Source: an uncultured Verrucomicrobiota bacterium (GTDB lineage Bacteria > Verrucomicrobiota > Verrucomicrobiia > Limisphaerales > UBA9464). Taken from it: a DNA stretch of 64,000 nucleotides. Where the stretch lies: positions 9,261-73,260 of the forward strand of contig CAIWAH010000141.1 of assembly GCA_903910585.1 (NCBI GenBank). The letters run 5' to 3'. The first letter of the stretch is position 1, and every line of letters begins with the position of its first letter. Of the stretch, positions 5,024 to 17,188 are shown one piece after another. The notes beneath the pieces are model-generated. The model had not been told where the DNA came from. It did not search any database and worked only from the letters and a program-made list of their open reading frames with translations. Made by a program: the position numbers and the translations under genes.

Positions 5024-6391
5024 ATGCTCACAAAGGACACGATTGCGGCGGTGGCGACGCCCCTGGGGGAAGGGGGGCTGGCAGTGATCCGGATCTCCGG
5101 TCCGGGGGCGCTGGCAGTGGCAACCGCAGTGTTCCGCCCGGTCAACCCGAAGGCTCTGGCGCCGGCCGACGCGCCGACGCACACGGTCCATTACGGACAT
5201 GTCGTGCGCGCCGGACAGCGGGTGGACGAGGTGTTGCTCACGGTGCTGCGCGCGCCGCGGACCTTCACCCGGGAAGATACGGCGGAGATTTCCTGCCATG
5301 GCGGGGTGCTCGTCACGCGGTTGGTGCTGGAAACGGTGCTGGCGGCCGGCGCGCGCCTGGCGGAGCCGGGGGAATTTTCCCAGCGGGCGTTTCTCAATGG
5401 CCGGCTGGACCTCACCCAGGCCGAGGCGGTTGCCGATCTCATCCATGCCCGCACGGAGCTGGCTCTGGATGCCGCCCACGAACAGCTGGCCGGCAAGCTG
5501 GCGGATCGCATCCGGTCCCTGCGCGACGACCTGATGAACGCCCTCGCGCACATCGAGGCGCACATCGACTTCCCGGACGAGGACATTGCGCCCGACACGC
5601 AGGCCGCCCTGCTGGGCCGGCTGGAGCGCGCGGTCGCGCAGATGCGGGAGCTGCTGCGGACGGCCCGGGAGGGCCAGATCCTGCGGCGCGGTCTGCGGGC
5701 GGCGATTGTGGGCCGGCCCAACGCGGGCAAGTCATCGCTCCTCAATCAGCTGCTGGGCCACGAGCGGGCGATCGTTTCGCCGGTCGCCGGCACGACGCGC
5801 GACACGGTCGAGGAGACGGCCAACATCCGCGGCATTCCGGTTGTCTTCGTGGACACCGCGGGGCTGCGTGACACCGCCGATGCCGTCGAGGCGGAAGGTG
5901 TGAAGCGGAGCCGCGCCGCGCTGGAAGCGGCGGAACTCATCCTGCACGTCCTCGACCATTCGGCGCCGCTGGCTCCGGAAGACGTGGCGTTGGCCGGAGA
6001 ACTCGCGGGCCGGCCGCGGCTGCTTGTGCTCAACAAGCATGATCTGGAGCCGCGGCTCGCGCTCCCGGCGGGCTGGGAGGGGATTCCGGTGAGCTGTTCG
6101 ACCGGAGCGGGGCTGGAAACCCTGAAGGAGGCGATCCAGCGGGTGGTCTGGTCGGGAGCGATCGCCGGCGAACCGCATCAGCTGACCGTCAACGCCCGTC
6201 ACGCGGATGCGCTGCGCCGCGCCGAGGCCGCCGTGGCGCAGGCAAAGGACACGTTGGTCGGGGGGAAGTCCCTGGAGTTGGTGGCGTTCGAACTGCGGTC
6301 CGGGGTCCAGGCTGTCGGCGAGATCGTCGGGGCGACGGCGACAGACGATTTGCTCGATTCGATCTTCCGCCAGTTCTGTCTCGGGAAATGA
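5024..6391 (+). CDS. mnmE: tRNA modification GTPase MnmE (TrmE)
   Basis: N-terminal DTIAAVATPLGEGGLAVIRISG, G-domain GRPNAGKSSLLN / DTAGLR / NKHD, and the C-terminal CLGK tetrapeptide typical of MnmE. Confidence 0.96.
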   Translation: MLTKDTIAAVATPLGEGGLAVIRISGPGALAVATAVFRPVNPKALAPADAPTHTVHYGHVVRAGQRVDEVLLTVLRAPRTFTREDTAEISCHGGVLVTRLVLETVLAAGARLAEPGEFSQRAFLNGRLDLTQAEAVADLIHARTELALDAAHEQLAGKLADRIRSLRDDLMNALAHIEAHIDFPDEDIAPDTQAALLGRLERAVAQMRELLRTAREGQILRRGLRAAIVGRPNAGKSSLLNQLLGHERAIVSPVAGTTRDTVEETANIRGIPVVFVDTAGLRDTADAVEAEGVKRSRAALEAAELILHVLDHSAPLAPEDVALAGELAGRPRLLVLNKHDLEPRLALPAGWEGIPVSCSTGAGLETLKEAIQRVVWSGAIAGEPHQLTVNARHADALRRAEAAVAQAKDTLVGGKSLELVAFELRSGVQAVGEIVGATATDDLLDSIFRQFCLGK

Positions 6392-6425
6392 CCGCGGCCC
6401 GGCCGCGTGGCTGGTGGGTCGGAGA

Positions 6426-7637
6426 TCATTTGCCCTTCAGCAGCTTCAGCCGGGGCGCGAGCAGAGAGGCGGTGCGGGCGAAAACCTCCGGCGGCACGCC
6501 CAGTGCCTGTTTCAATTCCACGTCGCGGTCCCATGGATTGCCGATTTGGGCGAGCCGGCTCATCTCCGCCTTTTCCAAGTGCAGGCCGAACAGCCAGGGC
6601 GAAACCAGCGCGGTGTTGATCAGCGGGAAATCGGAACCGTAGGCGAGCCGGCCGGCGAATTCAGGACGGGTGAGCGCTTCCTTCAGGTAGCCGGGCTTGT
6701 TCACCTGCGTGAGCGAGGAGATTTCCGAGTGCAGGTTGGGGAACTCCTTCATGAGGCGGGCGAGCCGGTCGGTATCCCGTTCGCCGCCATTTTCACCGGT
6801 CGAGGCAATGTGCGCGGCGATGACGGTGACGCCGAGTCGCAGGGGCAGGCGCAGGCGTTCGGGATCGGCGAGGCGGTCATCGGCATGCGTGAAGGACCGT
6901 TCCTGGCCGGCGTGGGTCAGCAGGGGAAGCTGGTGAAAGTTGAGCCGCTCGTAGAACGGAATGAGCCGCTCGTCAGCCGGATCGATGTGCATGATGCTGG
7001 GGATCCACTTCACCAGCACGGCACCGTTGGCCGCGCACCAGTCGAGCCGGGCCAGCGCATCGCGGCGGAGGGGATTCACCGAGGCGCCGAAGAGGAGGTT
7101 GGGGTGCCGGGCGGTTTCGCGGGCGACGAATTCGTTCGGCACATGGACCTCGGTGGCCGTGCGGTCGAGCTCGCCCGCGGCATCCACCGCGCCGTCCATC
7201 GCGAGGATGACGGCGTGGCTGACGTGCCGGCTGGCGGCGACCTGGGCGGCGATGCGGTCCACCAGCGAGGCGTCGCCCTGCGCGGTGAGTTCAGCGCGGC
7301 TGGTGCCGAAGGACTTGAGGTAGATGTTGAATTTCCAGCTCTGCTCCAGCTCGCGGGAAATGAAACAGCCGCTGCCGCCCGCGCCGATGCCGGCGGTGTG
7401 GACGTGCAGGTCAATGAGGCGCGTCGGAGGCAAAGGCGCCGGTGTGCGGTAAGGCCCGGAAAAGAACAGCACGCGGCCGACGACAAGCGAGAGGAGTCCG
7501 GCGGCGAAGAGGCCGAGGAGCCAGCGAAGCGCGCGTCGCCAGCGAGCGGAGCGCGGACGGTCACGTCCGCCAGGAGGCTTGGCGCTGACGCTGAATTCGT
7601 TGGTTGGCATGGCTTGTTTCGGCGCGAGGCCAATCAC
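6426..7637 (-). CDS. membrane-anchored metal-dependent amidohydrolase (TIM-barrel, amidohydrolase_2-like)
   Basis: N-terminal TM anchor (LRWLLGLFAAGLLSLVVG), metal motif IDLHVHT, and C-terminal AYGSDFP. GTG start at 7637; alternative ATG at 7610. Last gene of the 12992-6426 operon. Confidence 0.75.
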   Translation of the reverse strand: MIGLAPKQAMPTNEFSVSAKPPGGRDRPRSARWRRALRWLLGLFAAGLLSLVVGRVLFFSGPYRTPAPLPPTRLIDLHVHTAGIGAGGSGCFISRELEQSWKFNIYLKSFGTSRAELTAQGDASLVDRIAAQVAASRHVSHAVILAMDGAVDAAGELDRTATEVHVPNEFVARETARHPNLLFGASVNPLRRDALARLDWCAANGAVLVKWIPSIMHIDPADERLIPFYERLNFHQLPLLTHAGQERSFTHADDRLADPERLRLPLRLGVTVIAAHIASTGENGGERDTDRLARLMKEFPNLHSEISSLTQVNKPGYLKEALTRPEFAGRLAYGSDFPLINTALVSPWLFGLHLEKAEMSRLAQIGNPWDRDVELKQALGVPPEVFARTASLLAPRLKLLKGK

Positions 7638-7644
7638 TGGCTGT

Positions 7645-8346
7645 TCACGCGGACGTGACCGTCCGCGCCCCGGCGCGTTGACGGAAGCGCCACACGGCGA
7701 AACCGACCAGGGCCAGCGAAGCGAATTGGTAGCCCGACAGCCCGAGTGCGATCCGCGGCGTGTCGCGCCAGAACTCGTGCGCGAACCGGAACGCGCCGTA
7801 GCCGGCGAGGTAGAGATGGAAATGCTGCCCCGGCCAGCGCCGCTGCCGGCGCAACAGGGCGAACGTCACCAGCGCGACGACGTTGAACCCGATCTCGGCG
7901 GGCACTGCGGGCCAGCGTGGATGACCGTGGCGGTCGGCGAGCGTCCACCAGGCCGGGTGTTCGCAGGCGGCCCCGAGGCAACAGCCCTGAAGCAGGCAGC
8001 CGACGCGGCCGAGGATGATGCCGACCGGCGCCACGCTGGCGAACAAGTCGCCGGTGGCCTGCGGGTAACCGACCCAGCGCTTGGCCAGCTCCACGCCACC
8101 GTAGCCGCCGGCCAGCGCGCCGAGCACGGTTTTACCCGTGGCCCAGCGCAGCCATTGGTCAGCCTGGCCGTAGTCGAGCCAGCCTTCCGCGAGGAGGTAG
8201 AGCAGCTTCGCGCCTAGGGCCGCGCCGAAGAGGCCGCCGAGGTAAATGGGCAGCAGCCGCGCATCACGTCGGGCGAGGCGATACCAGAGGAACAGGCTCA
8301 CGCCGATGCCGGCGAGCATGAGCCAGCGGTAGGGAGAGGATTGCAT
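7645..8346 (-). CDS. lgt: prolipoprotein diacylglyceryl transferase family protein (short Lgt-like form)
   Basis: Multi-TM protein whose conserved blocks align by eye to E. coli Lgt: GRVGCLLQGCCLG vs GRLGNFINGELWG, PAVPAEIGFN vs HPSQLYE, YLAGYGAFRFAHEFWR vs FLIGYGAFRIIVEFFR. Start overlaps the upstream stop by 1 nt. Confidence 0.7.
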   Translation of the reverse strand: MQSSPYRWLMLAGIGVSLFLWYRLARRDARLLPIYLGGLFGAALGAKLLYLLAEGWLDYGQADQWLRWATGKTVLGALAGGYGGVELAKRWVGYPQATGDLFASVAPVGIILGRVGCLLQGCCLGAACEHPAWWTLADRHGHPRWPAVPAEIGFNVVALVTFALLRRQRRWPGQHFHLYLAGYGAFRFAHEFWRDTPRIALGLSGYQFASLALVGFAVWRFRQRAGARTVTSA

Positions 8347-8561
8347 CAGAGACTCGAACAGGCCCCGTAAACGAGTGCCAACAGAAGGGTCACAACTGCG
8401 AGCGGAACCACGAAGAGCCTTACTGCGACTTCAAGCAGCCCAGCCATGAAAGTTTTCGGCCGCCAAGCGCACTGTGGACAAATGACGGTTCCCGTATCGG
8501 TGCTCTGGTTGCTTGCGCCGCAGGCTGGGCAGGTCCACGGCGTTGGTAGGGGTCCGTTCAT
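8346..8561 (-). CDS. small zinc-ribbon protein with C-terminal TM helix
   Basis: MNGPLPTPWTCPACGAS..VICPQCAWRP (CxxC..CxxC) followed by a hydrophobic helix ending ..LVYGACSSL. Start chosen at ATG 8561, 7 nt after the radical SAM stop. Confidence 0.55.
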   Translation of the reverse strand: MNGPLPTPWTCPACGASNQSTDTGTVICPQCAWRPKTFMAGLLEVAVRLFVVPLAVVTLLLALVYGACSSL

Positions 8562-8568
8562 GGGAGAT

Positions 8569-10137
8569 TCACGGGATTGGGGGCGAATCGGCGAAGCCGG
8601 AATAATAGCGGCAGAACGAATCCAGCTTTCCGTCGGGGCGGATGACGTGGGTGCAGCAGCGGTCAATGCGGTCCTGATCCCAAGTCCACGCGTCCATGAA
8701 CGGCTTCACCATGAGACGGAAGGCGACGCTGCCTTTGAGTTCAAGATCCTTGAGCAGGGCGCCAAGCGGTTCGGTTTCGCAGCCGCAGCGGGCGAGGTCG
8801 GCGACGGTGTATTGGATCTTGTTCTGGAGGAAGCCCTGCAACCGGGCGAAGTCGAGGAACTCGCTCACGGAATGCACCTGGCCATTCAGGCGGAGCAGGT
8901 AGCCGATGATCGCGCAGTTCGGATCGCCGCAGGGCAGGGGCGTGAAGTCGTCGCGCTTCAGCCGGCCGGCGCTTTGGGCGAGCGCGGCGAGAAGGATGTC
9001 CGCGGCGTTGAGCCGTTCACCGGCGTCGAGGACAGCGCCCGGAACCGTCCCCGGGCGCAGTGCCTGGACCCCCTCTCCGCCATCCGATGGGGGAGAGGGT
9101 TGGGGAGAGGTGGTGTTCCGTGCGGCCGTTAGGTTCGGAGGCGGCCCCTCTCCCCGGCCCTCTCCCCGCTCGTGCCTCGCGGGGCGAGGGAGAACAGGCG
9201 CGCCAGCGTCCGGCCGCCGGCCGCTGCGGAACATGGGCTGGAAGGTGATGCCGTGGACGATGGGGCGGGCGAGGCCGAACTCGATGGCTTCCCAGACGTG
9301 CGGCAGGTTGTCGGGCGTGACGGTCATCGCGAGTGTCACCGGCAAGTCCATCTCGGCACAGACCGCGAGGGCGCGTTCGCGGGTGCTCCGGAGATCGGCG
9401 CCCCGCAGGAAGTGCTGGGCCGCGGCCTGCACGCCGTCGAACTGGAGGTAGAGCTGGAGTTTGCGGCGTTTGGCCGCGACCGCGAGTTGGGCGGCGAATT
9501 CGGCGTCGTGGGCGATCCGGACGCCGTTGGTGTTGATCAAGGCGTAGTCGATATGCGGATGGCTTTGGACCCATGCGAGCAGTTCCAAGAAGTCCGGGTG
9601 CAGCGTCGGCTCGCCGCCGGAGAGCTGGAGGATTTCGATCTTACCCTTGCGGGCGACGACGCTCTCGATGCGCGCCTTGAGTTCGGGCAGCGGCACGGCG
9701 TCCACCTTGCCGCCGGTGCCGAGCGGCGAGTTGGCGTAACAGGTCGGACAGCTCAGGTTGCAGGAACGGACGATTTCGATCAGCGCGAGGCAGGTGGACA
9801 GCGTCTCGAACGGCTGATCGCCGTGTCCGGCGGCGTTCCGGCCCAGCGAGGCCGGCGCGGAACCTTCGGCGGAACAGCAGCCGGAGCCGGGCGCGCAGCA
9901 GGCGTTGTCCGGATTGCCCTGGGCGAGCCAGTAAAAGTGCGCATCGGTGGCGAGGCAGGCCGACGATTCGCCGTGCTGTGGGCAGGTGCGGCGGAGCACT
10001 ACGCGGCTCGGTGCGACGCCTTCCTTCCAGACTTCGCCCGGGACGGCGGCGTGGCAGACGGGGCAACGGGTTTGGGTGTGCTTGAGGAGCTGGCGCGAAG
10101 GTTGGAGGCTGATGGGGGGCATGAGATCAATGCGCAT
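8569..10137 (-). CDS. radical SAM enzyme, COG1964-like (family of archaeal tetraether synthase Tes/GDGT-MAS, MJ0619)
   Basis: CNLSCPTC (CX3CX2C) radical SAM motif and SGGEPTL. N-terminal rubredoxin-like CPVC..TCPQHG. C-terminal PLPCGDPNC, CGC, and KPFMDAWTWDQDRIDRCCTHV..DGKLDSFCRYY. Start placed at ATG 10137, overlapping the upstream stop by 1 nt (alternative 10122; track start 10236). Confidence 0.85.
   Translation of the reverse strand: MRIDLMPPISLQPSRQLLKHTQTRCPVCHAAVPGEVWKEGVAPSRVVLRRTCPQHGESSACLATDAHFYWLAQGNPDNACCAPGSGCCSAEGSAPASLGRNAAGHGDQPFETLSTCLALIEIVRSCNLSCPTCYANSPLGTGGKVDAVPLPELKARIESVVARKGKIEILQLSGGEPTLHPDFLELLAWVQSHPHIDYALINTNGVRIAHDAEFAAQLAVAAKRRKLQLYLQFDGVQAAAQHFLRGADLRSTRERALAVCAEMDLPVTLAMTVTPDNLPHVWEAIEFGLARPIVHGITFQPMFRSGRRPDAGAPVLPRPARHERGEGRGEGPPPNLTAARNTTSPQPSPPSDGGEGVQALRPGTVPGAVLDAGERLNAADILLAALAQSAGRLKRDDFTPLPCGDPNCAIIGYLLRLNGQVHSVSEFLDFARLQGFLQNKIQYTVADLARCGCETEPLGALLKDLELKGSVAFRLMVKPFMDAWTWDQDRIDRCCTHVIRPDGKLDSFCRYYSGFADSPPIP
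9069..9199. repeat. GC-rich hairpin-forming repeat element inserted in frame in the radical SAM CDS
   Basis: 9071-9099 ccctctccgccatccgatgggggagaggg folds as a ~14-bp stem with 1 mismatch. A second imperfect palindrome lies around ccccgc(9164-9169)..gcgggg(9179-9184). The region translates as ..RGEGRGEGPPP..SPQPSPPSDGGEGV... Confidence 0.7.
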
Positions 10138-10421
10138 CAGTGAGGACGCATGAGCATCCATCCGACACTTTGAAGAAGCACCGAGGCCACAAAGCTGGCA
10201 AAAGACCAAAACCATGCCCGCACATACGGTCGCCAAGGTGATTCAGGCAGGCCGCGAACAATGTGAATGGCTGCCAAGGTAGAGAGAATTGGTGAAGTTG
10301 CCCCAAAGAGCAGCACGATAACCTTAAGATGGGAGGCGGCTCCAACGAGCACGCCAACCGCCGGTGCGACAGTCAGGCTGACCGGCAGGTGCCACCGGTA
10401 AGGGCGACGGGGCGCATTCAT
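10137..10421 (-). CDS. small hypothetical membrane protein (94 aa, about 3 TM)
   Basis: Hydrophobic ORF in operon register, with its stop coupled to the radical SAM start. Local GC is lower (a hand-counted 60-nt line is 57%). Confidence 0.5.
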   Translation of the reverse strand: MNAPRRPYRWHLPVSLTVAPAVGVLVGAASHLKVIVLLFGATSPILSTLAAIHIVRGLPESPWRPYVRAWFWSFASFVASVLLQSVGWMLMRPH

Positions 10422-10452
10422 GGCAAGCGTGGCCGGCTTGGCGGGAAAGTTT

Positions 10453-10749
10453 TCAATGGAAGTTCGGTTGGTAGCCGCTAAGGGAGCAGCCGGTCAGTTG
10501 CAGCCCGAGGGAAAAGATGCCGCAAACGATGGTCCAGCCGAGGGAGTGAAGAACATCCTTTCCCGGAGTTCTGCCGGTGTGCAGGCCCAAGAGGATTCCT
10601 GCCGCCAGGCTTGCAAACGGCCAAAGCATCAGAGCGATTCCCACCGCAGGTTCGGCTCCGCTCAGCGCAAGGAATCCGGGCAGTGCAGTAAGCGCCAGCG
10701 CCCACCAGACTTTGGCGTTTGAACGCGGTTGAGGATCGGTCGGTTCCAT
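10453..10749 (-). CDS. small membrane protein, paralog B (98 aa), C-terminal lipobox-like LTGC
   Basis: MEPTDPQ.. start at ATG 10749. Three predicted TM helices. Shares GILLG..TG..HSL.W..SLGLQ..GC with the neighbouring 98-aa ORF. Confidence 0.6.
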   Translation of the reverse strand: MEPTDPQPRSNAKVWWALALTALPGFLALSGAEPAVGIALMLWPFASLAAGILLGLHTGRTPGKDVLHSLGWTIVCGIFSLGLQLTGCSLSGYQPNFH

Positions 10750-10762
10750 GAGGTGGGGAAAC

Positions 10763-11059
10763 TCAGAAACGATAGTTGACCGCATTGCACCCCATGAACT
10801 GAAGCCCCAAGGAAACCCCGAACGCACCCAGCGCCCAGAGCAGGCTGTGCAAGGCCTTCTCGCCTACCGAGTCGCCGGTGCGGAAGCCGAGCAGAATTCC
10901 CGACACCAAGGACAGTGCGGGAGAGAGAATGAGGTTGGCGATGGTGAACTGCTCGGAGTTGGACATCGTGCCGAGGAGGGCACCGAGGCCCGGGCCGATG
11001 GCGAGCAGGATCGCGATGACGACCGGAGCAGTGCTGCGGGGCGAAGGGCTGGTTTCCAT
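10763..11059 (-). CDS. small membrane protein, paralog A (98 aa), C-terminal FMGC motif
   Basis: METSPSPRS..; same length and conserved C-terminal block as 10453-10749. Confidence 0.6.
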   Translation of the reverse strand: METSPSPRSTAPVVIAILLAIGPGLGALLGTMSNSEQFTIANLILSPALSLVSGILLGFRTGDSVGEKALHSLLWALGAFGVSLGLQFMGCNAVNYRF

Positions 11060-11066
11060 GGGAATT

Positions 11067-11243
11067 CTACTTGTGTCGCCAAATCCGCCAGAGGATCGCG
11101 CTCAGGAGCGTGCCGCTTCCGGCGTAGAAAACGTGCCAGGCGTTCGGGAAAGGCCACTCGAAGCTGGCGAGGAATCCATAGGCACAGAACGTCGCCAGCG
11201 CCGCCAGGGGCAGAGATGCAAAAACCCGGGAGAACGTTGTCAT
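11067..11243 (-). CDS. small hypothetical membrane protein (58 aa)
   Basis: Below the ORF-track size cutoff. Hand translation: MTTFSRVFASLPLAALATFCAYGFLASFEWPFPNAWHVFYAGSGTLLSAILWRIWRHK*. It exactly fills the gap between two operon genes (6-7 nt spacers). Confidence 0.4.
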   Translation of the reverse strand: MTTFSRVFASLPLAALATFCAYGFLASFEWPFPNAWHVFYAGSGTLLSAILWRIWRHK

Positions 11244-11249
11244 GGGAGG

Positions 11250-11801
11250 TCAGGGACTCTGCTTCTTCATCGCCTCGGCATACTTCACGCCGTCGAGGTA
11301 AACTTCGCGGATGATGCCTTGGCCGGAACTGGGAATGGCGACGTCCACGGTGAGTTTGCCGCGGGGATTGCCCGTGCCTTCCCGGACGTAGAAGCGTTCG
11401 AGGCCGTATTCGACCCGGAGGTGATCGGGACTGGCGGACGACCAGGACCATGACGTTTCCGATTTGCCCCGCAGCACGGGATGGTCCGCGTCGGCGGGCA
11501 ACTCGGTGAAGGCGGCCTCGATGGCCCGGTGGAACTCGCCCTGGCGTTCCAGCTTCACGAACACGGGCGTGCCGGCGGGCGGCCGGTTGGTCAGGCCATC
11601 GGTGAAGAGCTTGGCGTCGAGCGTGCTGAGCTCGTAGTTGAGGATCACGTAGTCGCCCCGCAGCAGGTCGCGCGGGTCCACGGGCCGGGTTTCGAGCCGG
11701 ACGACGGTTCCCTGGCTGAGTTTGGCTTCCTGCAGGATGACGGTGCCGATGACCCAGAGCACTTGCAGGCCGACGACGAGGCTGAGGAGTTTCGTTTTCA
11801 T
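11250..11801 (-). CDS. GDYXXLXY domain-containing protein
   Basis: N-terminal TM anchor and the literal motif RGDYVILNY; typical partner of DUF2157 proteins. Confidence 0.8.
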   Translation of the reverse strand: MKTKLLSLVVGLQVLWVIGTVILQEAKLSQGTVVRLETRPVDPRDLLRGDYVILNYELSTLDAKLFTDGLTNRPPAGTPVFVKLERQGEFHRAIEAAFTELPADADHPVLRGKSETSWSWSSASPDHLRVEYGLERFYVREGTGNPRGKLTVDVAIPSSGQGIIREVYLDGVKYAEAMKKQSP

Positions 11802-11807
11802 GGCGGT

Positions 11808-12992
11808 TCAGGCGGGCTGAGGTTCGATGACGGCGAACCGGCGGATCAGGGAGCGGCGTTTGCGTTCCAGATAAACGGCGAGGCCGATGAGGAAGAGGCC
11901 GGTGACGACAAACATCATGCCGGTGGTCTGCATGGAGCCGAACAACTGGAAGTAGGCGGTGACGATGTGCAGGCCGAGGAAGACCATCGCGAGGTTCACC
12001 AGCCACTTGCTCCGCCGGAGCAGTCCCACCTGTGCCTGCAGCAGGCAGAAGGCGAACAGCACCGGCACGGCGATCCAGTGCGGCCCGACCAGACGGTGGG
12101 TTTCCCAGCTTTCGTAACGGCCCTTCAAGGTCAGGCCGAACCACGCGAGTCCAACGAGGCCAAGCTGGGCCACGGTCCACACCCAGCGCCACTGGCGGTC
12201 CGGAATCACACCCAGTCGCGGGACCGCCAGCAGCCACACGGCCACGGTCGCGACGGTCAGCCCGCCGGTGATTGCCCAGGCGGCCGGGGCGACGGCGTCG
12301 GAGCCATAGAACACGCCCAAGGTGAGCGGATAGGAGGCAATGTGCGTGGCCAGCAGGCCGAACTTCTCCGTGGGCGGCCCGAATTCCGGGAACTTCGACT
12401 GCCCCAGCCACAGGCCGAGTCCGGCGAAAAGAATCCCGAGCAGGGCATACAGCATGAATTGGCGGCCTTCCCCGGCGAAGTAGAGCCAACTGTCCTGCTG
12501 ATTGAGTTCCAGCCCCAGCCAGACGCCGAAGATCGTCAGGGCGAGGATATGCTGGGCTTTGGAGCGGAGAATCCACGCCAGCGGCGCAACGCCGGCCAGC
12601 CAAAGCAGAATCGCGTTTGGCGGGCGGGAGGACAGGTTGTAGATCTGGCCGACGAGGGCGATGTTGGCCAGGAACAGGCCGGAGCCAATCAGGTGCAGCA
12701 CCTCCGCCAGCACCGGGTGCCGGCCCGACCGGGCCAGCGCGATCCCACCCACGTGACTGCCGACCAGCAGGCTGACGGCCACCCCGAGCTTCAGCATCCG
12801 CGGGATGTCGTTCCAGTTCGACGCGATCAGCAGGATGATGCCCGCACTGACCAGAATGGCGCCGAGGATGCCGACAATGGTCAGGAAGCGGTTGCTCTCC
12901 CGGTCGAGCCTGAAGTGCTCGACGATGGCGTGCTCCTGCGCCTCGTTGATGAACCCGGCCTCGCGCAGCTTCCGGATGTCGGTGGCGTTCAT
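11808..12992 (-). CDS. DUF2157-type polytopic membrane protein
   Basis: N-terminal soluble segment (LREAGFINEAQEHAIVEHF) followed by about 10 TM helices. Classic pairing with the GDYXXLXY gene, 6 nt downstream. Confidence 0.75.
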   Translation of the reverse strand: MNATDIRKLREAGFINEAQEHAIVEHFRLDRESNRFLTIVGILGAILVSAGIILLIASNWNDIPRMLKLGVAVSLLVGSHVGGIALARSGRHPVLAEVLHLIGSGLFLANIALVGQIYNLSSRPPNAILLWLAGVAPLAWILRSKAQHILALTIFGVWLGLELNQQDSWLYFAGEGRQFMLYALLGILFAGLGLWLGQSKFPEFGPPTEKFGLLATHIASYPLTLGVFYGSDAVAPAAWAITGGLTVATVAVWLLAVPRLGVIPDRQWRWVWTVAQLGLVGLAWFGLTLKGRYESWETHRLVGPHWIAVPVLFAFCLLQAQVGLLRRSKWLVNLAMVFLGLHIVTAYFQLFGSMQTTGMMFVVTGLFLIGLAVYLERKRRSLIRRFAVIEPQPA

Positions 12993-13067: not shown

Positions 13068-15311
13068 TCAGGTTGTGGCCGCAGTCGCCTTCAGCCGGCT
13101 TTGCAGCTCCCGGTGGTTCACTTTCCCAGTGCCCAGCTTGGGGATCTCCCGCACGACCATGACCTCGCGCGGGACGCAGAGGTTGGTCATGCCCTTGCCG
13201 CGGATGACGCTGCGGATGTCCTCGAGGGTGAGCTTGGGCTGGTCGGTGACGGCGATGAGTTTCTCGCCCTTGTCCTCGTCGGGCACGGCGATGACCGCGA
13301 TCTCGCACTTGAGGCCGAGGTGCGGGAACGCGCCGGCCAGCGCGTCCTCGACGGCGGTGAGGCTGACCATTTCGCCGCTGATCTTCGCGAAGCGCTTCAG
13401 GCGGCCGAGAATGTGGACGAAGCCCTCGTCGTCCACCTTGACCATGTCGCCGGTGTCATACCAGCCGCCGAGCGCCTGGAACTTGGCGTTGGCGTCGGGA
13501 TTCAGGTAGCCGCGCATCACGTTCGGGCCGCGCACGAACAGCTTGCCGCCCTCGGCGACGCCCTCGATGGGCTCCAGCTTCCATTCCATGCCGGGCAGGA
13601 AGCGCCCGACGGAGCCGGACTTGGGTTCCAGCCGTGAGTTGATGGTGATGGCCGGGCTGCACTCGGTCGCGCCGTAGCCTTCGAGGATGCGCACGCCGAA
13701 CTTCTTCGCCCAGGTCTGCACCGTGGCGTCCTGGATCTTCTCGGCGCCGGCGACGAGGAATTTCACCGAGTTGAAGTCGTAGGGATTGGCCCGGCGCGCG
13801 TAGCCGTTGAGGAAGGTGTTCGTGCCGAGCATGACCGTGCAGGCCTTGTCGTAAACGGCGGCGGGAACGACGCGGTAGTGCAGCGGCGACGGGTAGAGGA
13901 AGGTGTAGAAGCCGTTGGTCAGCGGCACGACGAGTCCGGCCATGAGCCCGAAGCTGTGGAAGAGCGGCATGGCGCTGAAGAACCGCTCGTGATCGGTCAC
14001 GTCGAGCACGCCCATGAGTTGGCGCATGTTCGCGAGTAGATTGCCGTGGGTGAGCTCGACGCCCTTGGGCACGCCTTCGGAGCCGGAGGTGAAGAGAATG
14101 ACGGCGGTGGCCGACTGCGGATTGCGGATTGCGGATTGCGGATTGAGTCCCGCGCCGCACGCGAGGGTGTGCTTCACCAGCTTGGTAAGCTTGGTCAGGC
14201 CGGAGACGCCCGCGCGGACGTCTTCTAGGAAGATCAGTTCGATGCCGGCGTCGAGGAACGGCGTGAGTTCCAGCTTCGCTTTCTGGGCGAAGACCCGCGA
14301 CGTGATGACCTGCTTAAGCCCGGCCAATTGGGCGCATTGCAGCATCGTGGGGATGCCGGTTGAGAAGTTCAGGATCGCGGGAACGCAGCCGACCGCCCAG
14401 AGGCTGAGCAGGGTGACGGGCGTGCCGTTCACGTTGGGCAGCAGCACGCCGACGTTCATCGTAGGGCAGGCTGCCAGCCTGCCCGAGGTGTTGGCATTCG
14501 TTGCGCCCGAACTCGCAGACCCGGCGGGCAGGCTGGCAGCCTGCCCTACGTTGAGCCGCTTGCGCCATTCGCCGGCGAGCACGTCCACGCCGACCATCAG
14601 ACGGCGGTAGGTGAGTGCGGTGAAGGAGACATCCTCGAAGATGATCTTCCGGGGCAGCAGGGCGGCGGTTTCGACCACGGCGCTGAGGACATTCTGCGCG
14701 CCGAATTCCATCTCCGCCTCGAACTGTTGCCGGACCATCATGTCGCGCAGCCAGGTCGTGCGGCGCTGGCGGGCGACGCTGTTGGAGGTGCCGTCGGGCA
14801 GCGCCGGGGCGGTCAGGACGTCGCTGAAGTGGGCGCTGACGCGGGGCCGCCAGTGGGTCCAGCCGGTGTGCCGCACGAAGGGCACGCGGCGGGCGTTGCG
14901 CAGGTAGCAGGTGATGACCTTGGCGCCGGTCTTGTGGATCAGGAAACCGGTGCCGTCGAAGAGCTTCATCAGGGAGCCGGTCAGGGTGATGCGGCCCTCG
15001 GCGAACAGCACCAGCCGGCCGCCGGTGGCGAGAAACTCCGCCATGCGTTTGGCGGCGTAGGGCGACGAGGTGTCCACCGGAAAGGTGCGGCGGTTCACCA
15101 TCATCTTTTTGTGCACCCACGTCGTCTCGGCGGTCGTGGCGCTGGTGACGAATTTCCAGTCATCATCCAGCACGGCGTAGAGGAACAGCCAGTCGAGCCA
15201 GGAGACATGGTTCGGGATGAGCAGCACCGGGCCGGGTGTCTTCAGCACCTCGGTATTGAAGGCGCGGAAGCGGAACCAGAGCCGGGCGAACAGAAGGCAG
15301 ACGAGTTTCAT
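13068..15311 (-). CDS. aas: bifunctional 2-acylglycerophosphoethanolamine acyltransferase / acyl-ACP synthetase (Aas-like)
   Basis: N-terminal PlsC-type HX4D (NHVSWLD) and C-terminal AMP-binding core (LFTSGSEGVPKGV, YGATE, GWYDTGD). Carries two in-frame repeat insertions (see repeats). Confidence 0.88.
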   Translation of the reverse strand: MKLVCLLFARLWFRFRAFNTEVLKTPGPVLLIPNHVSWLDWLFLYAVLDDDWKFVTSATTAETTWVHKKMMVNRRTFPVDTSSPYAAKRMAEFLATGGRLVLFAEGRITLTGSLMKLFDGTGFLIHKTGAKVITCYLRNARRVPFVRHTGWTHWRPRVSAHFSDVLTAPALPDGTSNSVARQRRTTWLRDMMVRQQFEAEMEFGAQNVLSAVVETAALLPRKIIFEDVSFTALTYRRLMVGVDVLAGEWRKRLNVGQAASLPAGSASSGATNANTSGRLAACPTMNVGVLLPNVNGTPVTLLSLWAVGCVPAILNFSTGIPTMLQCAQLAGLKQVITSRVFAQKAKLELTPFLDAGIELIFLEDVRAGVSGLTKLTKLVKHTLACGAGLNPQSAIRNPQSATAVILFTSGSEGVPKGVELTHGNLLANMRQLMGVLDVTDHERFFSAMPLFHSFGLMAGLVVPLTNGFYTFLYPSPLHYRVVPAAVYDKACTVMLGTNTFLNGYARRANPYDFNSVKFLVAGAEKIQDATVQTWAKKFGVRILEGYGATECSPAITINSRLEPKSGSVGRFLPGMEWKLEPIEGVAEGGKLFVRGPNVMRGYLNPDANAKFQALGGWYDTGDMVKVDDEGFVHILGRLKRFAKISGEMVSLTAVEDALAGAFPHLGLKCEIAVIAVPDEDKGEKLIAVTDQPKLTLEDIRSVIRGKGMTNLCVPREVMVVREIPKLGTGKVNHRELQSRLKATAATT
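14116..14145. repeat. heptanucleotide tandem repeat (TGCGGAT) x4.3 inside aas
   Basis: tgcggat tgcggat tgcggat tgcggat tg read directly. Encodes NPQSAIRNPQSA on the minus strand. Confidence 0.95.
14460..14550. repeat. 91-nt element with perfect 25-bp terminal inverted repeats, in frame inside aas
   Basis: cgtagggcaggctgccagcctgccc (14460-14484) is the exact reverse complement of gggcaggctggcagcctgccctacg (14526-14550). Each arm is itself internally palindromic. Confidence 0.95.
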
Positions 15312-15377
15312 CGAGTGGCGGGAGAAGAGGCGGGTTGAAGGGGCAAAGTGTTGAAGGGGGAAGCGGTGCGGAGGTGG

Positions 15378-15523
15378 GCGCTAAGCGTCTTGGAGTGCGG
15401 CAGCGGAGCGAAGCGAAGCTGCCGCTTTGGCTGTTGGCCGACAGGGAGTGAAGCGTGGAAGTCCGGCGGGACGTTCATTCCGAAAAGCGGTGGCAAGCCA
15501 CACGCACTCCAAGACGCTGGCGC
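15378..15523. repeat. intergenic nested inverted-repeat (REP/MITE-like) element between lnt and aas
   Basis: The 16-bp core agcgtcttggagtgcg (15384-15399) pairs with cgcactccaagacgct (15503-15518). An inner 8-bp hairpin is gcggcagc(15398-15405)/gctgccgc(15418-15425). Confidence 0.85.
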
Positions 15524-15525
15524 GT

Positions 15526-16986
15526 TCACCGGGCCTCCTTTTGTTTCCGGCGCGGACGCCAGCCGGTTACGGCGAGCCACAGCATCACTCCCCCAGTCGT
15601 CCAGGTGCAGGCGGGGGCGAGCCACGCATCGAGGGGCACGGTGCCACCCTTGCCGGACCAGCGCAGTCCGCCGGCGATTAGTTCGCCTTGGCCGGGGAAA
15701 GGGGCGGTGGCCTGCTCCCGTCCGTCGCGGTCGATGATTTGCGAGATGCCGGAACTGGCCACGCGGAAAACGGGCACGCGGTGTTCGACAGCGCGGATCC
15801 GGGCCATGCGGGCGTTGAGGCGATGCTGATGTTCGCCCCATTCCTGCACATCCATCGTGGGGATGAGGAGCGCCACGGCACCTTGCCGGACGAGTTCATC
15901 GGTCACCTGCCGGTAGCTGGCGTCGTAACAGATGCAGATGCCAAGCTTGCCCCATGGCGAATCCCAGACGCGCTGCGAAGGCGCCGGCTCGCCGTCGGCG
16001 AAGAACTGGATGGGCCGCGACTTGGCTTGCGTGAACACCACTTCGCCGTTGGTGCTGATGACGAAGGCGGTGTTGTAGAACCGCGCCTTCGTAGCCGCCG
16101 ACGTTAGGAGGCGGAGCGGAGCGGGGGCGGAGGAATCCGCCTCGTCACCTCGGCGGCTACCGGGCTCGATGGGCTGCTTGCCACCGACGACCAGCCACTT
16201 GCCGTTCCGCCTGCACCACTCTCTAACGGCCCGCGGCGGCGGCCCGTCGGCGAACGTGTATTCGCTGAGCATCAGCAGCTCGGCGTCGGGATGTGCCTTG
16301 GCCAGTTTGTCGAGGCCGGTAAGCACATCGGGGACGGCGGGGAATTCGAGTTGGAGGCCGGCGACTTTTAACGCAGGTCGTCTTTGCGGCACGGCCATTA
16401 GCGGAGGAAAAGCCAACGCTCCAAGTATTGCCGCGGAGAGTGCATAGATTGTGAGGTTTAATCTCCGCTTCAGTGAATTGGTGGCCAAGAAACCAAGGCC
16501 AACGAATCCCAACAAACCAAAGCCAATTCCGTAAACGCCCAGAATCGCCGGAAGCGCAAGGATGGTGTCCACGAGTGAGCTTCCCGCCGTGAACCACGCA
16601 AACCGCAGCCACCAGACTTCGCTCCGGAAATACTCGATCCCACACCAGAGCACCGGCGCGAGGATCACGGCCCACTTCGTTCCCAGCCGGAACTCGACGC
16701 GGTTCAGCGTCAGCAAGAAGGCGGCGTGGAACAACGCGAGGATCAGCCACAGCGGAATCGCGGCCGCCTGGAAGATGGTCCACAGAAAGCCCATCTGCGG
16801 CACGAACACGCCGAGGCCGATCGCAAGTCCGATGTAGAATGCCTGCCGCGCCGTCGCCAGCCGCCGCAACGCGAACAGGCAACCCAGATACCCCAGCACC
16901 AACCAGCACAGCGCCGGCACCAGAAAGGCGAGGTGAAACAAGCCGACGGCCCCCAAGGCCAGCAGCGCGGCGGACTTGGCGGTCAT
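15526..16986 (-). CDS. lnt: apolipoprotein N-acyltransferase
   Basis: About 7 N-terminal TM helices, then a CN-hydrolase domain with MLSEYTF (Glu) and GICICYDASY (Cys). ATG at 16986; an upstream in-frame GTG at 17040 is also possible. Confidence 0.85.
   Translation of the reverse strand: MTAKSAALLALGAVGLFHLAFLVPALCWLVLGYLGCLFALRRLATARQAFYIGLAIGLGVFVPQMGFLWTIFQAAAIPLWLILALFHAAFLLTLNRVEFRLGTKWAVILAPVLWCGIEYFRSEVWWLRFAWFTAGSSLVDTILALPAILGVYGIGFGLLGFVGLGFLATNSLKRRLNLTIYALSAAILGALAFPPLMAVPQRRPALKVAGLQLEFPAVPDVLTGLDKLAKAHPDAELLMLSEYTFADGPPPRAVREWCRRNGKWLVVGGKQPIEPGSRRGDEADSSAPAPLRLLTSAATKARFYNTAFVISTNGEVVFTQAKSRPIQFFADGEPAPSQRVWDSPWGKLGICICYDASYRQVTDELVRQGAVALLIPTMDVQEWGEHQHRLNARMARIRAVEHRVPVFRVASSGISQIIDRDGREQATAPFPGQGELIAGGLRWSGKGGTVPLDAWLAPACTWTTGGVMLWLAVTGWRPRRKQKEAR
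16091..16160. repeat. 70-nt imperfect palindromic element in frame inside lnt
   Basis: The 11-bp arms gtagccgccga (16091-16101) and tcggcggctac (16150-16160) are perfect complements. Inner aggaggcgg/ccgcctcgt pairs partly. Translates as ..RRGDEADSSAPAPLRLLTSAATK... Confidence 0.85.
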
Positions 16987-17188
16987 TGGGCGACCGCAAG
17001 GTGGGGAGGCGGACTCGGCGGTTGGTTGTTCGGGTGACACGGGGCGGCGGTCAGGTCGGGAATTCGATGGTCAGCACGGGATGGCTATGACATGGCGCCG
17101 CGGAATTGGCCGAATTGAAAATCCGAATCGGGCCATTGGCCAAGGCAATAGCCCGACGGTTGGACCGGCCGCGGGCGGCACCGGCATG

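Follow-up and report, generated by a model that had tools for sequence, protein, structure and literature searches.

A radical SAM protein of the Tes/GDGT-MAS superfamily encoded with an Lgt-like membrane protein in Verrucomicrobiota

What does a bacterial relative of the archaeal tetraether synthase do when it is encoded among lipoprotein and lipid genes? This question is raised by a radical S-adenosylmethionine (SAM) gene of an uncultured Verrucomicrobiota bacterium, located in a stretch of 64,000 nucleotides (nt) of contig CAIWAH010000141.1 (assembly GCA_903910585.1, positions 9,261 to 73,260), hereafter the window. An initial annotation, made from the sequence alone, had given its product the cysteine architecture of archaeal tetraether synthase (Tes/GDGT-MAS). 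We found that the protein truly belongs to the superfamily of Tes/GDGT-MAS (MJ0619, COG1964-type) but is not a Tes orthologue, and that it is part of a distinct subfamily of Tes-like enzymes, of which we found no earlier description, that is coupled to a membrane protein of the prolipoprotein diacylglyceryl transferase (Lgt) family. Together with Cys-tailed small proteins encoded beside the pair, this suggests an undescribed lipid or protein-lipid modification pathway. Our favoured reading, to which we give a probability of about 45%, is that the radical SAM protein is a Tes-type lipid-tail coupling enzyme that would act with its Lgt-fold partner on a glycerolipid, the two forming a membrane module.

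Bacterial Tes homologues were noted, with role unknown, by Zeng et al. (2022; PMC8941075) and Lloyd et al. (2022; PMC9433317). Since then they have been candidate makers of membrane-spanning lipids, including the branched forms of glycerol dialkyl glycerol tetraethers (brGDGTs) used as palaeoclimate proxies; no function has been assigned to any of them, and surveys just count them, as did a 2025 Black Sea survey (PMC11868695) for 110 metagenome-assembled genomes (MAGs) of Planctomycetota, without functional test. A 2026 review of lipid-modifying radical SAM enzymes makes no mention of a link with Lgt, and full-text literature searches for a pairing of radical SAM/Tes with Lgt returned nothing relevant. 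The Lgt-coupled subfamily is a caution against calling these genes tetraether synthases in metagenomic surveys of lipid potential. It may also hold new chemistry, in which diacylglyceryl transfer of the lipoprotein type would be combined with the coupling of lipid tails by radical C-C (or C-S) bond formation, and the module is a compact operon of 3-7 genes amenable to expression and mass spectrometry.

The radical SAM protein within the Tes/GDGT-MAS superfamily

The gene and the parts of it discussed below are the following.

8569..10137, minus strand: radical SAM protein of the Tes/GDGT-MAS family, 522 amino acids (aa), ATG at 10137 (MRIDLMPP...)
9973-10065, minus strand: rubredoxin-like site C25/C28/C52/H55
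9739-9762, minus strand: radical SAM motif C126x3C130x2C133
9022..9213, minus strand: ~60-aa insertion (..ARHERGEGRGEG..SPQPSPPSDGGEG..), in frame, located in a surface loop of variable length
8611-8931, minus strand: C-terminal Cys set C403...C509

The ATG shares its A with the stop codon of an upstream small gene, smC (TGATG). A longer start (TTG at 10236) is possible but finds no support in this overlap or in the N-termini of homologues. All the Cys motifs listed in the initial annotation were found in the translated open reading frame (ORF): an N-terminal pair (C25-P-V-C28, 23 residues, C52-P-Q-H55-G), a linker (N78-A-C-C-A-P-G-S-G-C-C-S89), the radical SAM motif (C126-NLS-C130-PT-C133), which is accompanied by a GGEP SAM motif, and the C-terminal motifs PLPC403GDPNC408, C451-G-C453, DRC494C495THV and SFC509RYY.

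A homologue search yielded more than 4600 relatives, and those with a named source among the best 120 were all from Verrucomicrobiota. We aligned the protein with 25 homologues sharing 56-91% identity. C25, C28, C52, H55, C87, C116, C126, C130 and C133 were invariant in these 26 sequences, as were C403, C408, C451, C453, C494, C495 and C509 at the C-terminus, and C88 was kept in at least 90% of them. A Cys set that does not vary across homologues argues that the motifs are real and under selection rather than due to chance. The CC..CC linker listed in the initial annotation was present, but its first CC (C80, C81) varied among homologues.

The insertion of about 60 aa occurs in the window protein and in two homologues (P0001 and P0002), is missing from a third (P0003) that is 94% identical over the aligned part, and was modelled by AlphaFold2 at a pLDDT below 50. 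Its DNA contains an internal inverted repeat (9090-9110 / 9147-9167) of the GGGGAGAGGG/CCCTCTCCCC repeat-element type, and a 50-nt piece of it recurs in two other loci (L056 and L019), with no further copy within the window.

Pfam profiles detected PF23545 (Zn_ribbon_HMPTM, residues 18-63) and PF04055 (Radical_SAM, residues 120-287). The top solved relative by sequence was 7TOL (E-value 1.4e-28 with the single sequence and 1.1e-41 with a family profile), and GDGT-MAS from M. jannaschii (7TOL/7TOM) was the only strong match among solved structures. Using Foldseek, an AlphaFold2 model of the protein (pLDDT 67.7, pTM 0.72) matched 7TOL over its full length (E-value 2.7e-23, TMq 0.61 / TMt 0.65), while SkfB, viperin, MoaA and anSME covered just a core of ~190 residues (TM ~0.28). 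The C-terminal block KPFMDAWTWDQDRIDRCC..FC.YY, which the initial annotation had likened to COG1964 proteins such as MJ0619, aligned with M. jannaschii GDGT-MAS (7TOL chain residues 458-493). Best homology by both sequence and fold was therefore to 7TOL and not to a SPASM or cofactor clade; a SPASM/twitch peptide maturase was rejected as an assignment, the Mycofactocin, NirJ, PqqE, sactipeptide and related models covering only residues ~116-290 (E-values 3e-11 to 1e-4).

Membership of the superfamily, as first proposed, is thus borne out by Pfam and by 7TOL in sequence and fold, whereas orthology with Tes is contradicted by the NCBIfam scores and by differences in the ligands. The NCBIfam Tes model (NF045702) gave 141.7 bits for a cut-off of 450, in two stretches confined to the N-terminal 290 residues, and the top-scoring NCBIfam model, that of the radical SAM (seleno)protein TrsS (NF045646), gave 201.5 bits for a cut-off of 490.

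To compare ligands we used the numbering of Lloyd et al. 2022 (PMC9433317), taking into account an offset of 20 tag residues in the PDB chain. The protein and Tes/GDGT-MAS share the order of a rubredoxin-like Zn ribbon, a radical SAM core and a Cys-rich C-terminal domain, and both contain the CxxC...CxxH site, CX3CX2C, GGEP and an FMDA...RCC.H...FC.Y block; identity in the Foldseek structural alignment was 19%. The rubredoxin-like and radical SAM sites were kept, the mononuclear Fe site of GDGT-MAS (C9x2C12x20C33x2H36) aligning with C25x2C28x23C52x2H55, and C494, C495 and C509 align with a CC...C of MJ0619 that would be native C455, C456 and C470 by the tag offset. Three features had changed. 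The region of the [4Fe-4S]N motif (C73x3C77x2C80 plus a His) aligned without matching Cys; in the clade it keeps only C87, C88 (90%) and C116, with no conserved His after them, and may hold an N-terminal auxiliary cluster with different ligands. The labile Met439, which together with three Cys makes up the [4Fe-4S]C site, corresponds to Lys478, and the Cys preceding it to Val477. Finally, Tyr459, strictly conserved in ~1000 archaeal homologues (PMC9433317), corresponds to Val498, which is invariant in the clade, the position being V/F/I in distant Lgt-associated relatives. Conversely, C403 and C408 (PCGDPNC) align with a part of MJ0619 that has no Cys, and around CGC (C451, C453) no alignment with MJ0619 was obtained.

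An exhaustive profile search with clustering at 50% identity yielded 441 representatives when the threshold was E<=1e-30, and 1732 when it was E<=1e-10. Ten representatives spread over that range all scored below both the Tes and the TrsS cut-offs, indicating that the superfamily contains many unnamed bacterial clades. Almost all sampled bacterial representatives had C116, C403, C453, C494, C495 and C509 in the alignment, all but one had C408 and most had C451; the multi-Cys C-terminus is therefore a trait of the sampled bacterial representatives and is not specific to the clade. TrsS-like relatives have these C-terminal Cys columns in common with the window protein and differ from it in gene context, as judged from one sampled relative (P0374, 446 bits for the cut-off of 490), which lies among corrinoid methyltransferase genes with no Lgt gene. 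The locus of P0374 (L092/L093:1-9362) encodes URO-D/MtaA-like methyltransferases, a B12-binding protein, CobW, a DUF169 protein and a second radical SAM protein.

The Lgt-like partner and the Cys-tailed small proteins

In the window, the radical SAM gene lies in a minus-strand run with the following genes, the junctions from smC through the Lgt-like gene being overlapping or 8 nt long.

10763..11059, minus strand: smA, 98 aa, three transmembrane (TM) helices, ends ...LGLQFMGCNAVNYRF
10453..10749, minus strand: smB, 98 aa, three TM helices, ends ...LGLQLTGCSLSGYQPNFH
10137..10421, minus strand: smC, 94 aa, three-TM paralogue of smA and smB, ends ...LLQSVGWMLMRPH, its stop overlapping the radical SAM start
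8346..8561, minus strand: 71-aa protein, zinc ribbon (CPAC...CPQC) at the N-terminus, a single TM helix, ends ...LVYGACSSL
7645..8346, minus strand: membrane protein of the Lgt family (PF01790), active site altered, its start overlapping the stop of the 71-aa gene (TGATG)

To assess how often the radical SAM and Lgt-family genes occur together, we scanned GTDB species representatives for the motifs, which gave 459 genomes with relatives of the radical SAM protein. The 80 best were nearly all Verrucomicrobiota, among them Verrucomicrobium sp. BvORR106 and BvORR034 as well as MAGs bearing the names Pedosphaera, Chthoniobacter and Prosthecobacter. Of the 71 Verrucomicrobial loci whose flanking DNA was long enough, 65 had an Lgt-family gene adjoining the radical SAM gene; in 64 of them it followed directly downstream on the same strand, and in the remaining one (L048) it lay upstream. 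The gap between the two genes had a median of tens of nt and reached 200-900 nt in about a third of the loci. Besides these 71 loci, two had partial Lgt copies at contig ends and eight were truncated.

The Verrucomicrobial clade is much younger than the pairing. An Lgt-family gene was adjacent in all six sampled distant relatives (~30% identity; L084, L089, L090, L094, L096 and L097), usually upstream of the radical SAM gene, in loci of 35-70% GC whose radical SAM proteins keep the PC..P.C and CGC motifs. No Lgt gene was found at two sampled relatives outside the subfamily, one in a DsbD_TM/methyltransferase locus and the other in the TrsS-like corrinoid methyltransferase locus. One of the distant pairs (P0266) has an FMN_red/flavodoxin-like NAD(P)H-dependent reductase gene directly upstream of the radical SAM gene (L084:4326-4928), and this reductase is a plausible electron donor for the cluster.

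In two further relatives, P0269 (L087:2684-4699) and P0320 (L088:803-3004), the proteins are fused, with an N-terminal LGT domain followed by the zinc ribbon and the radical SAM domain. A search with P0269 found LGT, Zn_ribbon_HMPTM and Radical_SAM in a single chain in 88 of the best 120 clusters. These fused proteins are 613-748 aa long, are encoded on contigs of up to 737 kb and carry no annotation beyond "prolipoprotein diacylglyceryl transferase (family protein)"; source names were available for four clusters only (Planctomycetes, Pirellulales and Thermoguttaceae, all Planctomycetota). Such fusions are Rosetta-stone evidence that the two proteins work together, and they also bear on topology: the N-terminus of Lgt contributes to its periplasmic head (PMC4728403), so that seven TM helices would leave the C-terminus, and the Fe-S enzyme fused to it, in the cytoplasm. 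An Lgt-like partner or fusion has not been described for archaeal Tes, in contrast to the obligate-looking partner of the bacterial protein. P0320 combines its Lgt domain with a Tes-like CPFDCGLCPAH auxiliary motif, so that the link with Lgt extends beyond the subfamily of the window protein. In the P0269 locus, a gene for a 459-aa rhodanese-domain protein overlaps the end of the fusion gene.

The Lgt-like protein of the window matched PF01790 (E-value 2.6e-22) from residue 6 to 219, on model positions 14-236 of 240, and scored 27.2 bits with TIGR00544 for a cut-off of 118.9. Its AlphaFold2 model has seven long helices (pLDDT 85); a Foldseek search of the PDB gave no significant match, not even 5AZB, a result that is uninformative for an all-helical membrane protein. 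We aligned 62 Verrucomicrobial sequences with E. coli Lgt (5AZB) and, in a second alignment, added six distant partners. The equivalents of Tyr26, Gly104, Asp129, Arg143, Gly154, Tyr235, Arg239, Glu243 and Arg246 were kept in 62/62 sequences, and GRxGC, Tyr235, Arg239 and Glu243 were still invariant with the distant partners included. Arg143 and Arg239, along with Tyr235 and Glu243, are phosphatidylglycerol (PG)-binding/catalytic residues of E. coli Lgt, and the Lgt-like protein probably binds PG.

Other positions differ from E. coli Lgt. The active-site motif reads G113-R-V-G-C117-LLQG-C122-C123-LG (signature region GRVGCLLQGCCLG), and both Asn146 and Glu151, which belong to the signature motif and its hydrogen-bond network in E. 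coli (PMC4728403), were Cys in 62/62 sequences (GRxGCxxxGCCxG, against G142RLGNFINGELWG154 in E. coli). His103 (HGGL), whose substitution inactivates the E. coli enzyme (PMC4728403), is Leu, Thr or Val; the periplasmic head domain is deleted; and the gene is encoded with, or fused to, the radical SAM gene. The kept Arg/Tyr/Glu set and the loss of His103, Asn146 and Glu151 together point to an Lgt-fold protein with changed chemistry, not a conventional Lgt.

The third component is a set of small membrane proteins, four of which (smA, smB, smC and the 71-aa protein) lie by the pair in the window. We searched the loci for a pattern consisting of an uncharged helix, G-(x)-C, then <=16 residues. 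It occurred in 94 of the 483 same-strand ORFs lying <=1.5 kb upstream of the radical SAM gene (19.5%), and in 13/89 ORFs between the radical SAM and Lgt genes (14.6%); the remaining 6293 ORFs of these loci had it in just 36 cases (0.6%), a ~30-fold enrichment beside the pair. Cys-tailed small proteins were present in 64/81 loci, often as 2-4 tandem copies, and their last TM helix closes with [F/G]-x-G-(x)-C and a tail of 5-13 residues. When sequences were scored without the Gly requirement, position -1 was Gly in 51/63, position -3 was Phe in 37/63 and position -2 was V, A or G; the tail after the Cys had 5-12 residues here, often with His or Arg last. A frequent architecture, found immediately upstream in 25 loci, combines a zinc ribbon of the form CPxCQ...CPFCG with three TM helices and the tail ...CFGC, and a second one combines a zinc ribbon with one TM helix and includes the 71-aa protein of the window, whose gene starts 8 nt past the radical SAM stop and whose architecture recurs in other loci. 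Beside the distant pairs, small proteins end in …GFGACTANFIILFS, …GFGACLLLLWGIGSQV, …GFGTCVANIQLGNF, …GFAVCVYTLSNAW and …GTFCLSAAGLGVF, a tail of the G[FY]G.C type. Pfam and NCBIfam provided no family covering the small proteins, only sub-threshold zinc-ribbon matches.

With the zinc ribbon inside, the positive-inside rule and an odd number of TM helices (1 or 3 in the proteins inspected), the Cys is predicted at the outer end of the last helix, which resembles a signal anchor. It stands at the lipobox position: F-[VAG]-G-C fits the pattern [L/V/I]-[A/S/T/V/I]-[G/A/S]-C (as quoted in PMC12462473), with Phe at -3. In smC, unlike smA, smB and most family members, this position is Trp (TGG; ...SVGWMLMRPH), and smC may be a degenerate or non-modifiable copy. 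A four-helix membrane protein of ~140 aa (…LGLWGCALVSLGCGYFVAA…), not present in the window, is encoded ~540 nt upstream of the radical SAM gene in 16 Verrucomicrobial loci (e.g. L045:2542-2964).

Candidate functions of the module

If the module couples lipid tails, as we tentatively favour, the Lgt-like protein would bind a glycerophospholipid in the membrane, and the cytoplasmic radical SAM enzyme, tethered to the C-terminus of its partner, would abstract hydrogen from the termini of the acyl chains. The tails would then be joined by the Tes mechanism, for which Lloyd et al. 2022 (PMC9433317) provides the template: a 5'-deoxyadenosyl radical is followed by a C-S intermediate at the C-terminal cluster and finally by a C-C bond. 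This would yield a diacylglyceryl unit that is macrocyclic or linked tail to tail, and in Verrucomicrobia and several other lineages this unit would probably be moved, before or after coupling, onto the Cys of a small protein.

Several observations weigh against this reading. The radical SAM protein is far under the Tes equivalog cut-off (141.7 against 450 bits), has Val in place of Tyr459 and differs in the N-terminal auxiliary-cluster motif. The partner is without His103, Asn146 and Glu151, which makes canonical diacylglyceryl transfer to Cys by this protein doubtful. Six Verrucomicrobial loci had no Lgt-like gene in the 5.7-8 kb downstream of the radical SAM gene, and no Cys-tailed small protein was seen in L084, L087 and L088. 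Membrane-spanning or macrocyclic lipids are not known from Verrucomicrobia. Topology is a further difficulty. The active site of E. coli Lgt faces the periplasm (PMC4728403), the Cys of the small proteins is likewise predicted to be outside, and the Fe-S enzyme must be inside, so that it is difficult to see how the latter could act directly on a lipoprotein anchor in the outer leaflet. One way round would be for the radical SAM enzyme to modify the donor lipid on the inner leaflet ahead of transfer; another would be for it to join a tail of the inner leaflet to a tail of the outer-leaflet anchor.

Among the alternatives, one that we regard as possible but unlikely is that the radical SAM protein is simply what Tes or Mss would be in these bacteria, an enzyme coupling the tails of bulk membrane phospholipids so that free lipids of membrane-spanning or macrocyclic form arise (precursors of the diabolic-acid or brGDGT type), with the Lgt-like protein as a membrane dock or substrate feeder only and the small proteins unrelated or regulatory. 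The shared superfamily and overall fold with GDGT-MAS agree with it, as does the fact that the module core is the radical SAM and Lgt-like pair, some loci lacking small proteins. The proposal that brGDGTs are made by bacterial Tes homologues has been put forward (Zeng 2022, PMC8941075; Lloyd 2022, PMC9433317); GDGT-MAS bound ester phospholipids of E. coli (PMC9433317), and lateral clefts as well as two PG sites are present in the Lgt fold (PMC4728403). Set against this are the distance below the Tes cut-off, the unconfirmed function of bacterial Tes homologues (PMC11868695) and their distribution: none was found in producers of diabolic or iso-diabolic acids outside Acidobacteria, and just 3/14 Acidobacteria producing iso-diabolic acid had one (PMC13159169). 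According to Sahonero-Canavesi et al. 2022, most diabolic-acid producers are without Tes homologues and use Mss instead. Mss, the membrane-spanning lipid synthase of Thermotoga/Thermoanaerobacter, is likewise a radical SAM protein proposed to couple acyl tails; its structure reportedly resembles that of Tes (PMC13274423), and it is described as only remotely related to it (PMC13159169). We compared it with the window protein by description only, and no Lgt partner is reported for it. A plain Tes counterpart would, moreover, leave unexplained both the ~30-fold enrichment and deep conservation of the Cys-tailed proteins and the invariant change of Asn146 to Cys in the Lgt-like partner.

The initial annotation had allowed for action on the acyl chains of a lipoprotein or lipopeptide beside the making of membrane-spanning lipids, and on the sequence evidence such action appears to fit better than free tetraether synthesis. 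A more specific version, which we consider rather unlikely, is a new protein-lipidation pathway in which the Cys-variant Lgt would S-lipidate the Cys at the end of the last TM helix and the Tes-like enzyme would couple lipid tails within this anchor or to a second lipid. Its products would be macrocyclic or membrane-spanning protein-bound anchors or, after cleavage, very small lipopeptides like C(lipid)-SLSGYQPNFH, and the bacterial "Tes homologues" of this subfamily would not be free-tetraether synthases. It would apply to Verrucomicrobia and to several unidentified lineages sampled in metagenomes.

It is improbable, in our estimation, that the radical SAM protein is instead a maturase acting in the manner of those for peptides that ribosomes synthesise and that are modified post-translationally (RiPPs), forming a thioether or other cross-link at the Cys or tail of the small membrane proteins while the Lgt-like protein lipidates independently. 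Precursor peptides are typically tandem, variable small proteins with just a C-terminal motif in common, a C-S bond is an intermediate of Tes chemistry (PMC9433317), and the subfamily has extra conserved Cys (C403, C408, C451 and C453); these Cys are, however, also found in relatives without an Lgt partner or small proteins, and the target Cys is predicted to be periplasmic. The radical SAM protein has no RiPP recognition element or SPASM/twitch signature, SPASM families matching its core only (E-values 1e-5 to 1e-11), its full-length fold is that of GDGT-MAS, and no such peptides occur near the sampled fusion loci L087 and L088.

A cofactor-biosynthesis enzyme, as implied by the old MJ0619 label "7,8-dihydro-6-hydroxymethylpterin dimethyltransferase", which JGI gives to many of the homologues and which survives in the Pfam domain name (HMPTM), is highly improbable given that Lloyd et al. 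failed to reproduce pterin methylation and showed MJ0619 to be a lipid synthase (PMC9433317), and that the neighbours of the radical SAM gene encode membrane proteins, with no pterin or methanopterin genes among them.

Neighbouring genes in the window

Genes flanking the run described above are listed here.

6426..7637, minus strand: 403-aa protein, TM helix at the N-terminus, HxH-like and amidohydrolase-like motif (LIDLHVHTAG), last gene of the same-strand run
11250-12992, minus strand: DUF2157 membrane protein (394 aa), then GDYXXLXY protein (183 aa), directly upstream of the small-protein genes
13068-17040, minus strand: Aas-like fusion of acyltransferase and acyl-ACP synthetase (747 aa), next to an Lnt-like protein

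The 403-aa protein had no Pfam, NCBIfam or PDB match; its gene adjoins the pair only in the closest relative (L003) and was not counted as a module member, its place in the system being doubtful. The Lnt-like, Aas-like, DUF2157 and GDYXXLXY proteins were rejected as functional partners, being syntenic only in the closest relatives (L003 and L005). The context of lipoprotein and lipid genes on which the initial annotation drew is thus real as regards the conserved Lgt-like gene and incidental as regards Lnt and Aas. A promoter/terminator scan of 6200-11400 gave nothing useful, and an Rfam scan of the whole window gave 0 matches. The Lnt-like protein scored 83.8 bits for an lnt equivalog cut-off of 132.9, with a partial match to the CN_hydrolase domain, and a convergent MnmE gene lies downstream.

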